A DNA stretch of 8,231 bases from IMG/VR virus record IMGVR_UViG_2671180695_000017; one strand, given 5' to 3'. Made by a program: the position numbers and the translations under genes. Below are positions 2,243 through 7,897 of this stretch, piece after piece. How positions within the stretch are numbered: the stretch's first letter is position 1; each line of letters starts with the position of its first letter. The notes under the pieces are model-generated. The model searched no databases. It had not been told where the DNA came from and saw nothing but the letters and a program-made list of their open reading frames with translations. Origin of the DNA: a virus (lineage: Duplodnaviria; Heunggongvirae; Uroviricota; Caudoviricetes).

Positions 2243-3525
2243 GTGCGGGTATTACTTCGACCTGTTCTGGTACCGGAACTCGGGCTGGTGATCGTTAAGC
2301 CGGGCCGTGAATCCATGCCGGTATTCCACAATACCCGGGTACTGGTGGAGCCGGAACCGAAAAGCATGCGTAATCTGTCGTCCGGGGTCGTTCCTGCCGT
2401 TCGCCAGCCGCTGGCGGAGGATAAATCATTACTGCCATTTTTCAGCGACGAACGAGTGATTCGTGCTGCTGGTGGCGCTGGCGCATTGTCTGACTGGTTA
2501 CTGCGCCATGTTAAATCCTGCCAGTGGCCACACGGCGATTATCACCACAGTGAAACCGTCATTCACCGTTATGGTACCGGCGCAATGGTGTTGTGCTGGC
2601 ACTGCGACAACCAGCTGCGCGACCAGACCTCCGAATCACTCGGGCAACTTGCTCACCAAAACCTGTTTGCATGGATGATTGACGTCATACGCCATGCAAT
2701 GAATGGCTCGCAGGAACGGGAATTATCGCTGGCTGAATTATCCTGGTGGGCGGTCCGCAATCAGGTGGCGGACGCGCTACCGGAAGCGGTATTACGTCAG
2801 GTACCGGCGCAATGGTGTTGTGCTGGCACTGCGACAACCAGCTGCGCGACCAGACCTCCGAATCACTCGGGCAACTTGCTCACCAAAACCTGTCTGCATG
2901 GATGATTGACGTCATACTCCATGCAATGATTGGCTCGCAGGAACGGGAATTATCGCTGGCTGAATTATCCTGGTGGGCGGTCCGCAATCAGGTGGCGGAC
3001 GCGCTACCGGAAGCGGTATTACGTCGTTCGCTGGGGTTGCGTGCGGAAAAAATCCGCTCAATGTACCGTGAAAGCGACATCGTACCGGGAGAGCAGACCG
3101 CCACCAGCATACTGAAGCAGCGCACAAAAAATCTTGCGCCGCTGCCTCACGCCCACCAGCAAAACCCGCCACAGGAAAAGACGGTGGTCAGCATTGCCGT
3201 TGATCCGGAGTCACCGGCTCAGTATCTCCAGCGCCAGAAATCACAACGGGAAGAGATGCCTGTATACACGCGTTGGGTAAAAACGCAGAAATGCATGACG
3301 TGTGGCAATCAGGCAGATGATCCGCATCACATCATTGGTCATGGACTGGGAGGGATGGGAACAAAGGCTGATGATTTGTTTGTTATTCCGCTGTGCCGTA
3401 AATGCCATAGCGAACTACACGCCGGGGTAAAAGATTTTGAAGAAAAACACGGCAGCCAGCTGTTGTTGCTGATTCGTTTTTTAATGCACGCGAGAAATTC
3501 GGGTGTTTTGAAGTGGAAAGCATAA
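2243..3525 (+). pseudogene. YbcO-like (DUF1364-type) zinc-binding putative nuclease gene with N-terminal extension, frame-disrupted by a 227-bp tandem duplication
   Basis: GTG at 2243 with GGAGG at 2234-2238. The frame-2 ORF 2243..2905 and the frame-1 ORF 2746..3525 encode the same ~75-aa stretch (GTGAMVLCWHCDNQLRDQTSESLGQLAHQNL...AVRNQVADALPEAVLR) because 2573-2799 is repeated at 2800-3026 (227 nt, equal to 2 mod 3). Removing one copy gives a single continuous 351-codon ORF ending at 3525. The C-terminus (CMTCGNQADDPHHIIGHG...IPLCRKCHSELH) has a CxxC...HH...CxxCH motif and sits directly upstream of rusA, as ybcO does in DLP12. Confidence 0.55.
2573..3026 (+). repeat. Tandem direct duplication, 2 x 227 bp, 3 mismatches between copies
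   Basis: Direct comparison: 2573-2799 and 2800-3026 are identical except three substitutions (ctgtTtgc vs ctgtCtgc; atacGcc vs atacTcc; atgaAtgg vs atgaTtgg). Junction ...attacgtc|ag|gtaccgg. Confidence 0.9.
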
Positions 3526-3906
3526 ATGACTGAACGCATAGAATTTGTTTTGCCTTACCCGCCAACGGTGAACACTTACTGGCGTCGTCGTGGCAGCACA
3601 TATTTTGTATCAAAAGCCGGGGAGCGTTATCGCCGGGCAGTGGCGCTTATTGTTCGCCAGCAGCGGCTGAAATTAAGCCTGTCCGGAAGGTTGGCAATAA
3701 AAATTATTGCAGAACCACCGGATAAGCGCCGCCGTGACCTGGACAATATTCTGAAAGCGCCGCTGGATGCGCTGACGCATGCGGGGTTGCTAATGGACGA
3801 TGAGCAGTTTGATGAAATCAATATCGTTCGTGCTCAGCCAGTATCTGGTGGACGTCTGGGGGTGAAGATTTACCCCATAATGCTTGAAGGGCAGGTCAAA
3901 AAATGA
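3526..3906 (+). CDS. rusA: RusA-family Holliday junction resolvase
   Basis: 126-aa protein with PPDKRRRDLDNILKAPLDALTHAGLLMDDEQ and GGRLGV, matching the conserved RusA core as I recall it for E. coli RusA ([23 protein letters not shown]...DD...GGRL). The ATG overlaps the upstream stop (TAAATG). Confidence 0.85.
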   Translation: MTERIEFVLPYPPTVNTYWRRRGSTYFVSKAGERYRRAVALIVRQQRLKLSLSGRLAIKIIAEPPDKRRRDLDNILKAPLDALTHAGLLMDDEQFDEINIVRAQPVSGGRLGVKIYPIMLEGQVKK

Positions 3907-4724
3907 AACTGGAAGATTTACCGAAATACTACTCCCCAAAATCCCCCGGCCTGACTGATGCATCGGCCTCAACGTCGAAAGATGCGCTGAGTATCACTGA
4001 TGTGATGGCCGCGCAGGGCATGACACCGAATCGGGCTGAGATGGGGTTTTCTGCGTTCCTTGGGAAAATGGGCATTAGTATGAATGACAGAGAGCGGGCA
4101 ACAGAATTGCTGACAGAATATGCACTCAGTCGGTGTGATCGCGTGGCGGCGTTAAGAAAACTCCCGGCAGAAATAAAACCGGTAGTGATGCGCATTATGG
4201 CTTCGTACGCTTTTGAGGATTATGCCCGCAGCGCAGCGAGTAAAAAGCAGTGCCCTTGTTGCTATGGGGAAAAATTTATTGAAAGCGTAGTTTTTACAAA
4301 CAAGGTCCAGTATCCGGATGGTAAGCCGCCGGTATGGGCAAAGTGTACGAAAGGTGTGTATCCGTCTTACTGGGAAGAATGGAAAAAAGTCAGGGAGGTG
4401 GTAAAAGTTGCCTGTCCGGAGTGTGGCGGAAAGGGTGAGGTTTCCACCGCCTGTAAGGATTGCCGTGGGCGTGGTGTCGCCATTCATCGTGAAGAGTCGG
4501 TAAAACGTGGTATGCCTGTTATCAGAGACTGCCAGCGTTGTGGTGGTCGTGGCTGTGAAAGACTACCATCAACGGAGGCATTTAATGCCATATGCAAAGT
4601 GACGAGTGCTATCACGCTTGATACGTGGAAAAAATCAGTGAAACGCTTTTACGATACGTTGGTGGTTCGGTTTGACATTGAAGAGGCATGGGCGGAGCGG
4701 CAGTTAAAGAGGGTAACGCGATAG
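3903..4724 (+). CDS. Putative late-gene antiterminator (Q-like) with DnaJ-type CxxCxGxG zinc-finger repeats
   Basis: Position is diagnostic: directly after rusA (ATGA overlap) and directly before a promoter that matches lambda PR' through its -10 and initial transcribed region. The protein carries CPCC plus three CxxCxGxG repeats (CPECGGKG, CKDCRGRG, CQRCGGRG). The N-terminus resembles what I recall of Qin-prophage Q homologues, but that recollection is not secure. Confidence 0.55.
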   Translation: MKLEDLPKYYSPKSPGLTDASASTSKDALSITDVMAAQGMTPNRAEMGFSAFLGKMGISMNDRERATELLTEYALSRCDRVAALRKLPAEIKPVVMRIMASYAFEDYARSAASKKQCPCCYGEKFIESVVFTNKVQYPDGKPPVWAKCTKGVYPSYWEEWKKVREVVKVACPECGGKGEVSTACKDCRGRGVAIHREESVKRGMPVIRDCQRCGGRGCERLPSTEAFNAICKVTSAITLDTWKKSVKRFYDTLVVRFDIEEAWAERQLKRVTR

Positions 4725-5298: not shown

Positions 5299-6348
5299 AT
5301 GCTTAATACTGTAAAAATATCCAGTTGTGAGTTAATCAACGCCGACTGCCTGGAATTTATCCGGTCGTTACCCGAAAATTCTGTTGACCTGATAGTCACG
5401 GACCCGCCGTACTTTAAAGTGAAGCCTGAGGGCTGGGATAACCAGTGGAAGGGCGACGATGATTACCTGAAGTGGCTGGACCAGTGTCTGGCGCAGTTCT
5501 GGCGGGTGCTGAAACCTGCCGGAAGTCTTTACCTGTTCTGTGGTCATCGCCTGGCATCTGATATCGAAATCATGATGCGTGAACGCTTCAGTGTGCTGAA
5601 CCATATTATCTGGGCGAAGCCGTCCGGACGCTGGAACGGATGCAACAAGGAAAGCCTGCGGGCGTATTTCCCCGCCACAGAGCGCATTCTGTTCGCGGAA
5701 CATTATCAGGGGCCGTATCGTCCGAAAGATGCCGGGTATGCGGCGAAGGGCAGTGCACTGAAACAGCATGTGATGGCCCCGCTGATTTCTTACTTTCGTG
5801 ATGCGCGCGCGGCCCTGGGGATAACGGCAAAACAGATTGCAGATGCCACAGGAAAGAAAAACATGGTGTCGCACTGGTTCAGTGCCAGTCAGTGGCAGCT
5901 ACCGAACGAAAGCGATTATCTGAAATTACAGTCGCTGTTTGCCCGGGTGGCAGAAGAGAAACATCAGCGCGGTGAACTGGAAAAGCCCCACCACCAGCTG
6001 GTGGATACGTATACGTCACTGAACCGGCAGTATGTGGAGCTGCAGAGTGAATATAAGCATCTGCGGCGGTATTTTGGTGTGACGGCGCAGGTGCCGTACA
6101 CGGATGTGTGGACACATAAACCGGTGCAGTTCTATCCCGGGAAACATCCGTGCGAAAAACCGGCAGAAATGCTGCAGCAGATAATCAGCGCAAGCAGTCG
6201 TCCGGGTGACCTGGTTGCAGATTTTTTTATGGGCTCAGGTTCAACGGTAAAAGCTGCACTGGCGCTCGGGCGTCGTGCGATTGGCGTTGAACTGGAGACC
6301 GGACGTTTTGAGCAGACAGTCAGGGAAGTTCAGGATTTAATCGTTTGA
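5299..6348 (+). CDS. Orphan DNA methyltransferase, beta-class (DPPY motif IV N-terminal, FxGxG motif I C-terminal); probably N6-adenine-specific
   Basis: DPPYF at residues 35-39 (nt 5401-5415) and FFMGSGST near the C-terminus (around nt 6224-6247), in the circularly permuted order typical of beta-class amino-methyltransferases. No restriction endonuclease gene is adjacent. Confidence 0.85.
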   Translation: MLNTVKISSCELINADCLEFIRSLPENSVDLIVTDPPYFKVKPEGWDNQWKGDDDYLKWLDQCLAQFWRVLKPAGSLYLFCGHRLASDIEIMMRERFSVLNHIIWAKPSGRWNGCNKESLRAYFPATERILFAEHYQGPYRPKDAGYAAKGSALKQHVMAPLISYFRDARAALGITAKQIADATGKKNMVSHWFSASQWQLPNESDYLKLQSLFARVAEEKHQRGELEKPHHQLVDTYTSLNRQYVELQSEYKHLRRYFGVTAQVPYTDVWTHKPVQFYPGKHPCEKPAEMLQQIISASSRPGDLVADFFMGSGSTVKAALALGRRAIGVELETGRFEQTVREVQDLIV

Positions 6349-6397: not shown

Positions 6398-6473
6398 GGC
6401 CCTTTAGCTCAGTGGTGAGAGCGAGCGACTCATAATCGCCAGGTCGCTGGTTCAAATCCAGCAAGGGCCACCA
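6398..6473 (+). tRNA. tRNA with CAU anticodon, closest to E. coli tRNA-Ile2 (lysidine type, reads AUA); phage ileZ-like
   Basis: Manual cloverleaf: acceptor GGCCCTT/AAGGGCC, D-arm GCTC-AGTGGTGA-GAGC, anticodon loop CTCATAA (CAT at 6431-6433), T-arm GCTGG-TTCAAAT-CCAGC, discriminator A plus encoded CCA. Very similar to E. coli ileX as I recall it. Position 27-43 is an A-C mismatch. Confidence 0.85.
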
Positions 6474-6480
6474 TCACAAA

Positions 6481-6560
6481 CCGCCATTAGCTTATCAGGA
6501 AGAGCAGACGACACGATAACAGGGTTGTTGGTGCGGGGGCGGGTCCCCGATGGCGGTCCA
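6481..6560 (+). pseudogene. Degenerate tRNA-like element between the two tRNAs (possible decayed argN-type tRNA)
   Basis: A 7-bp acceptor-like stem (CCGCCAT 6481-6487 pairing with ATGGCGG 6550-6556) followed by TCCA, a plausible D-arm (GCTT-ATCAGGAA-GAGC) and a 5-bp GC T-like stem (6534-6538 / 6545-6549). But the T-loop is 6 nt (GCGGGT, not TTCRANY) and I could not fold a canonical anticodon arm. Confidence 0.25.
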
Positions 6561-6573
6561 TTATCGGTATTCA

Positions 6574-6650
6574 GCGTTGTTAGCTCAGCCGGACAGAGCA
6601 ATTGCCTTCTAAGCAATCGGTCACTGGTTCGAATCCAGTACAGCGCGCCA
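6574..6650 (+). tRNA. tRNA-Arg (anticodon UCU, reads AGA/AGG); phage argO/argN-like
   Basis: Manual cloverleaf: acceptor GCGTTGT/ACAGCGC (one G-U pair), D-arm GCTC-AGCCGGACA-GAGC, anticodon stem ATTGC/GCAAT with loop CTTCTAA (TCT at 6608-6610), T-arm ACTGG-TTCGAAT-CCAGT, discriminator G plus CCA. Resembles E. coli argU. Confidence 0.85.
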
Positions 6651-7281: not shown

Positions 7282-7505
7282 CCGGGTATCAGTTAGCGGG
7301 AGAAATTTTTAAATACTTCACAATTCAGGCGGTTGATTGTTGTCTGGTTTGCGGGGAGTTTGTTAAAAGAAACTGGCATGGTGAATCCCCCTGTGCGGAG
7401 GGGCAATCAGCGAGTAGGTATATGGGATAATCGCGGATTCAGGTGCTGGTACTGAATTCACCGGGAGGCACCCGGCACCATGCAATGGCACATAGCGCCA
7501 CTCTC

Positions 7506-7535
7506 CAGCCCCTCTCCGGAGGGGCTGTTTATATT
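7506..7535 (+). terminator. Strong intrinsic terminator (+ strand) between the convergent cargo ORFs
   Basis: Perfect 9-bp GC-rich stem CAGCCCCTC / GAGGGGCTG (7506-7514 pairing with 7519-7527), TCCG tetraloop, followed by TTTATATTGATTTT. The opposite strand lacks a T-tract after the hairpin, so it is oriented to stop + strand transcripts. Confidence 0.55.
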
Positions 7536-7561
7536 GATTTTGTCAGATGTGAGTAAACTCC

Positions 7562-7897
7562 TTATGGACTTTGTTGTTTTAGTCCATAAGGACATATTTG
7601 CAGAGTGCAACGGTTATTAAAGCATTCATTCAATACGTTATCTGTATTTGTAGGGCATTCCTGGCTGTTTTTGATTAAATTCCAGAATGTTTTATTGAAT
7701 GGTACTACGTTGTAAATGGTTACAGGTAGCACTTTGTTATTGAGCATGATGCCTGTGTGAGTCAGTGTAAATATACTTTCAGGAGGTAAGAAAGCATCCG
7801 ATTGATACCAGATTATTAATTTTATTTTACTCCATATGACTGAAAAAGATATTCCGCATGATGGCTGGATAACTGTATCAATCACAATCCACTTCAT
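7562..7897 (-). CDS. Hypothetical cargo protein (111 aa) with C-terminal cysteine cluster, encoded antisense to the late operon
   Basis: ATG (7895-7897 on the minus strand) preceded by AAGGA with a 5-nt spacer. C-terminal C-x10-C-x4-C-x4-C pattern ([23 protein letters not shown]). The last 9 codons and the TAA stop lie inside a perfect 10-bp hairpin (7561-7590). About 33% GC. Confidence 0.45.

Follow-up and report, generated by a model that had tools for sequence, protein, structure and literature searches.

A 227-nt tandem repeat splitting a DUF968 (ydfU) gene in a prophage contig is probably an artefact of draft assembly

The 227-nt tandem repeat that interrupts a DUF968 gene in the window, the whole 8,231-nt stretch of prophage DNA analysed here, is probably an artefact of draft assembly and not a feature of the bacterial chromosome. 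This reading is favoured because the window is an entire draft contig, because the junction between the two repeat copies was seen nowhere else, and because the copies correspond to two natural alleles. The chromosome itself most likely carries an intact 351-codon DUF968 gene for a predicted His-Me-finger nuclease, located in the nin/recombination region of the prophage (DUF968-rusA-Q). An earlier note on this sequence had left two options, a real and possibly reversible gene inactivation or an assembly artefact; the evidence favours the artefact, and the analysis found no independent support for the reversible inactivation.

The repeat is truly present in the deposited sequence. Tandem Repeats Finder reported a single array at 2573-3025 with a period of 227, 2.0 copies, 98% matches and no indels, and a repeat search returned two 226-nt copies, at 2573-2798 and 2800-3025, with a spacing of 227. 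Since this is the sole long repeat within the 8,231-bp window, it is not attributed to chance. Base-by-base comparison of copy 1 with copy 2 revealed three mismatches, namely T>C at 2667/2894, G>T at 2691/2918 and A>T at 2703/2930. The tandem copies with three differences described in the earlier note are thus found, with all three mismatches inside the 226-nt copies, but the intervals given there, 2573-2799 and 2800-3026, bring in a fourth difference, A2799 vs G3026. The array consists of the following parts:

2573-2798, plus strand: repeat copy 1, 226 nt, identical to the common ST131-type allele, with zero differences from the ST131-type locus L001
2799-2799, plus strand: A, an orphan base at the junction; in the native gene, ...TTACGTC is followed by G and GGTACC... 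is preceded by T
2800-3025, plus strand: repeat copy 2, 226 nt, in which C2894, T2918 and T2930 are the states of the Qin-type ydfU allele WP_001761718.1

The base between the copies, A2799, matches neither T2572, which stands before copy 1, nor G3026, which stands after copy 2. The endpoints of the unit read TAT/GGTACC and GTC/GTTCGC (the slash marking the boundary), with the untemplated A at the join, and no microhomology, that is, none of the short direct repeats expected for slipped misalignment, was found at them. An A variant of either native neighbour base was absent from IMG/VR, where both variants were searched, and the native sequence at the place flanking the junction was recovered as a positive control from at least 120 IMG/VR contigs. 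A KpnI cloning artefact was considered, as both copies start with GGTACC, and was rejected, as the other end of the unit carries no KpnI site.

The effect of the repeat on the reading frame was determined from the listing of open reading frames and their translations. The gene and its two fragments are as follows:

2243-3525, plus strand: DUF968/YdfU-family His-Me-finger (HNH) gene, predicted to encode a nuclease; 1,283 nt as written and 1,056 nt (351 codons) minus one repeat copy
2243-2905, plus strand: ORF A, 220 aa, with 185 native residues followed, from residue 186 on, by a 35-residue out-of-frame tail; a called gene in the deposited contig
2902-3525, plus strand: ORF B, annotated as CTZ43429.1 'phage protein', 207 aa; the open frame extends back to GTG 2746 (2746-3525, 259 aa)

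The listing confirmed the two frames reported earlier, 2243-2905 with its out-of-frame tail and 2746-3525, and also that a repeat whose period is not a multiple of three splits an otherwise intact 351-codon gene just upstream of rusA; removal of either repeat copy restores the 351-codon ORF. Against the Pfam DUF968 profile, ORF A scored 22 bits, under the cut-off, and ORF B scored 216.5 bits and holds the whole domain together with its CxxC...HH...CxxCH core. ORF A ends at TGA (2903-2905), and this stop shares bases with the annotated ATG of ORF B (2902) in the sequence ATGA at 2902-2905, an overlap of stop and start that is typical of translational coupling.

The reconstructed 351-aa protein matched PF06147 (DUF968) with an E-value of 6.8e-64 and 215.4 bits over profile positions 1-169 of 171, and it gave a weak match to HNHc_6 (30.3 bits) that still lies above the cut-off; the Pfam cut-offs are 27.8 bits for DUF968 and 26.6 bits for HNHc_6. 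A C-terminal zinc-finger His-Me (HNH) motif, CMTC...DDPHH...CRKCH, is seen in the translation. The single-copy 1,056-bp homologues, with 99.7% identity, are named 'DUF968 domain-containing protein' in RefSeq (WP_001265085.1) and YdfU in phage records. Residues 1-159 (window 2243-2720) had no Pfam match and contain a second Cys/His cluster, C-x4-H...HH...CWHC, which lies partly in the repeated segment. DUF968 proteins have been described as carrying a C-terminal zinc-finger HNH motif (Curtis et al., PMC4118853), and DUF968 (YdfU) and DUF1364 (YbcO) have been assigned jointly to group 7 of the His-Me finger superfamily, their usual neighbours being RusA and Q (Jablonska et al., PMC5714182); in both studies (PMC5714182, PMC4118853), the nuclease activity of DUF968 proteins is predicted only.

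The gene had been called 'YbcO-like', which is loosely right in that the two families share an HNH core and the His-Me grouping, but the family is DUF968/YdfU: the reconstructed protein had no match to PF07102 (the YbcO family) at E<=0.01, whereas K-12 YbcO scored 144.8 bits against that profile. BLASTP of the window protein against YbcO found only a 30-residue HNH core in common, with 14/30 identities and E=6e-6 for the pair, and phmmer against YbcO in the PDB (3g27) returned E=0.51. Judged by these profile matches, the gene is best assigned to DUF968/YdfU, a sister family of YbcO, and not to YbcO itself. The resemblance to YdfU of the Qin prophage (PF06147) extends to the full-length Pfam match, the protein length (351 vs 348-349 aa), the C-terminal CxxC...HH...CxxCH His-Me finger, the gene order (hokD ... 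small ORF - DUF968 - rusA - Q) and the first 708 nt, which are near-identical to the Qin-type allele; the differences are that the 3' third of the window gene is a different allele and that the 227-nt repeat occurs in no other member. YbcO of DLP12 (PF07102/DUF1364; PDB 3g27) likewise lies directly upstream of rusA in K-12, shares the core H-x-GxGxK-x-D...C-x2-CH at 14 of 30 positions and belongs to group 7 (PMC5714182), but, unlike the window protein, it has 96 aa, consists of the core only and is matched by PF07102.

The window follows a lambdoid prophage order of DUF977, QueH, sok/hokD, two small ORFs, DUF968, RusA, Q antiterminator, DNA methyltransferase and tRNAs. The two genes downstream of DUF968 are:

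3526-3906, plus strand: rusA (Holliday-junction resolvase), immediately downstream; supported by Pfam RusA on the called gene and by the RefSeq annotation of homologous loci
3903-4724, plus strand: Q-type antiterminator gene; supported by Pfam Antiterm and by 'antitermination protein' in RefSeq at homologous loci

The gene therefore stands in a prophage nin-region setting beside rusA and Q, in agreement with the neighbours reported for the family (PMC5714182). Several other features were observed in the window. A QueH (epoxyqueuosine reductase) homologue lies at 722-1408 within the prophage early region, and it is followed by a hok/sok type I toxin-antitoxin module at 1476-1801, with sok RNA (RF01794, 120 bits) at 1476-1651 and hokD at 1646-1801. 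Downstream of the DNA methyltransferase gene (5299-6348), a tRNA pair is found at 6398-6650, of which the first has the anticodon CAT and is assigned to Met by ARAGORN and to tRNA-Ile in RefSeq at the homologous site, and the second is a tRNA-Arg (TCT). A full-length sRNA of the STnc100 family (RF02076, 132 bits) occupies 7347-7536, between a DUF3927 ORF and a minus-strand PmrD/IraM-like gene (7562-7897).

The intact gene is common, and the split state was found only in the window. Matches to most of the gene were obtained in 1,793 of 5,426 complete E. coli genomes, and among the matches listed all span 1,056 nt; the two repeat copies of the query align to one and the same single copy in these genomes. 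The comparison with relatives that had been proposed as a check thus yielded intact single-copy alleles, with the 1,056-bp gene carried by about 1,800 complete E. coli genomes, and every gene-length match in complete genomes or phage records is a single gene of 1,047-1,059 bp. When a 161-nt junction query was searched against the 5,426 complete E. coli genomes, the best matches were all in two pieces and none was contiguous. The exact junction patterns were absent from GTDB species representatives, IMG/VR and JGI metagenomes, and the junction peptides in both frames were absent from 5.8 billion protein clusters; four protein-cluster matches to these peptides came from ORFs in alternative frames of the native single-copy gene and not from the junction. 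Exact protein look-ups of ORF A and of most ORF B start variants found no record, the 207-aa product being the only one on record, and CTZ43429.1 is recorded on one contig only, CYFB01000055.1. In a single-haplotype test, no complete genome was 100% identical to the window over 1850-2798, nor over the other half.

The differences between the two copies could be traced to a known allele. The copy 2 haplotype C/T/T (2870-2960) had exact 91-nt matches in only 3 of the 5,426 complete E. coli genomes, and in all three the match is the Qin-type ydfU gene WP_001761718.1, adjoining rem and hokD; among IMG/VR loci, the haplotype was found in 0 of 120. Alignment of the Qin-type with the ST131-type allele indicated that the two are identical over gene nt 1-708 except at positions 136, 425, 449 and 461, and that they diverge strongly past nt 708 and also differ upstream of the start codon. 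The allelic states along the window are distributed as follows:

Gene site 136 (window 2378), plus strand: T, the Qin state, inside otherwise ST131-type sequence
Gene sites 425/449/461 in copy 1: ST131 state
Gene sites 425/449/461 in copy 2: Qin state
Both unique flanks of the repeat: ST131-type

The 1.6 kb upstream of site 136 (779-2377) are identical to the ST131-type locus, and all deviations of the window from the ST131-type allele in the shared 5' segment are Qin-type states. By sequence comparison, the copy differences are the bases of a second natural allele and not new mutations; three random mutations after a duplication would not yield a set of deviations that are all states of the other allele. 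The earlier proposal that near-identity of the copies implies a recent event is consequently unsupported, as the three differences exactly match Qin-type ydfU bases. The best whole-window matches were to ST131 genomes (98.8%; NZ_CP015085.1, locus L002), in which the corresponding region takes up ~9.5-12 kb vs 8.2 kb in the window; the ST131 references carry extra DNA relative to the window contig, with IS elements in some.

The assembly context and the geometry of the repeat were then considered together. The window is the entire contig CYFB01000055.1 (8,231 bp) of the draft assembly GCA_001286105.1, and small contigs that break off within prophage genes are typically seen where a region occurs more than once in a genome. 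Together the three variant sites cover 37 nt at the centre of the unit and are flanked by 94 and 95 nt, and such centring has a chance of ~1% at random. This centred cluster may represent a de Bruijn bubble branch printed with k-1 flanks at a k of ~95, but with a misfit of one base: no single odd k gives both 94 and 95 nt, and the period, 227 = 37 + 2x95, needs an even k of 96. A negative gap is marked by SSPACE with a single n, and Velvet is not known to pop bubbles longer than 100. The CYFB/CTZ accession style suggests that GCA_001286105.1 was made by the Velvet, SSPACE and GapFiller pipeline, in which k is set at 66-90% of the read length and the scaffolding and gap-filling steps are greedy, so that false joins are possible (PMC5320598). 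Another draft, IMGVR_UViG_2671180758_000015 (locus L086, 7358-11092), was observed to carry on one scaffold, at a distance of 2,679 nt, two DUF968-rusA-Q modules, of which the first has a Qin-type 3' half and the second an ST131-type 3' half; a single 'n' at 10085 immediately precedes the second gene and marks a scaffold join that falls within the shared 5' segment.

Collectively, we propose that the source strain may carry two lambdoid prophage modules with a ~720-nt 5' segment common to their DUF968/ydfU genes, one module being of the ST131 type, represented by the window contig, and the other of the Qin type, with the shared segments identical except at gene nt 136, 425, 449 and 461. The three clustered sites, 37 nt in total, would form a bubble in the assembly graph, and assembly together with scaffolding would have written both branches in series, each still bearing the shared flanks of roughly k-1 nt. 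A single filler base would then join the two branches and produce the apparent 227-nt duplication and the frameshift, and the isolated site at nt 136 would have collapsed to the Qin state. The analysis shows directly the repeat, the identities of the alleles, a junction unique among the collections searched and a window that is a whole draft contig; that a second, Qin-type allele resides in this strain, and which software step was at fault, we infer from these patterns. False duplications of this kind in draft assemblies, which arise from uncollapsed variant bubbles and false scaffold joins, resemble the present case in that two alleles stand in series, the variant sites cluster at the centre between flanks of roughly k-1, one filler base lies at the join, and the contig is small and comes from a repeat-rich prophage region, the single-'n' join of L086 being analogous; the window differs in that its join lacks an N and its flank lengths are off by one relative to the odd-k model.

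An assembly artefact is not free of difficulties, and these were weighed against the competing explanations. No N occurs at the junction, A2799 is explained by neither flank, and the C/T/T allele that the artefact calls upon is rare in the collections searched (3 of 5,426 complete genomes, 0 of 120 IMG/VR loci); short tandem duplications also do arise in bacteria. The first alternative is a real, strain-private 227-bp tandem duplication that carries a patch converted from a paralogous prophage allele and splits the DUF968 gene into a 220-aa N-terminal fragment and a 207-aa C-terminal product, possibly ATGA-coupled, with the whole predicted nuclease domain; reversion would be possible via RecA-dependent recombination between the copies. 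It accords with a continuous sequence in which both copies are clean, with a deposited annotation that calls both ORFs, with the retention of the full DUF968/HNH domain in ORF B, and with the fact that a unique junction sequence is recoverable by a k-mer assembler from real reads. It has to contend with a junction that is in no other assembly or protein searched (complete E. coli genomes, GTDB representatives, IMG/VR, JGI metagenomes and protein clusters) and with endpoints that lack microhomology and enclose an untemplated base, and it needs a gene-conversion patch in copy 2 from a Qin-type paralogue that covers exactly three sites, centred in the unit, as well as a conversion of site 136. 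A real duplication thus requires three independent rare events vs one assembly error, and we consider it unlikely; it is kept as a minor alternative because the k-mer model is off by one. Reversible tandem duplications act as genetic switches in bacteria, and the direct near-identical copies could likewise recombine to one copy and restore the frame, but here no microhomology flanks the unit, no such state was seen in the other genomes searched, and the case is known from one contig. If the duplication were real, 'inactivation' would still be uncertain, given the possible coupled translation of the 207-aa product, and the event would amount to an ordinary, strain-private disruption of an accessory prophage gene whose function is unproven.

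An artefact of the same kind could also have drawn its second allele from mixed or contaminated DNA of two E. coli strains, and not from a paralogue on the same chromosome. The allele evidence is the same for both sources, and the rarity of C/T/T favours neither; however, both allele types are documented in one genome (L086), many genomes hold several DUF968 genes, at up to 9 places per genome, and nothing else in the window looks mixed. Since several DUF968 genes per genome are common, contamination is not needed, and a mixed sample is judged very improbable. A conserved, native two-ORF arrangement of the gene, a possibility raised in the earlier note, has practically no probability left and is refuted by the gene-length matches in complete genomes and phage records, all of which are single genes of 1,047-1,059 bp; programmed frameshifting or a natively split gene was rejected likewise, as all homologues are single ORFs. 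The assembly artefact is favoured over the real duplication because the variant cluster is centred, the endpoints lack microhomology and the junction base is untemplated, and it is the most economical reading because one assembly error takes the place of several independent rare events.

The repeat is probably not a real feature. The practical meaning is a caution about the deposited record, in which two 'phage protein' genes are annotated (220 aa, and CTZ43429.1 of 207 aa), neither of which is likely to exist in that form. In the prophage regions of short-read drafts, paralogous alleles written in series can create pseudogene and gene-split calls.
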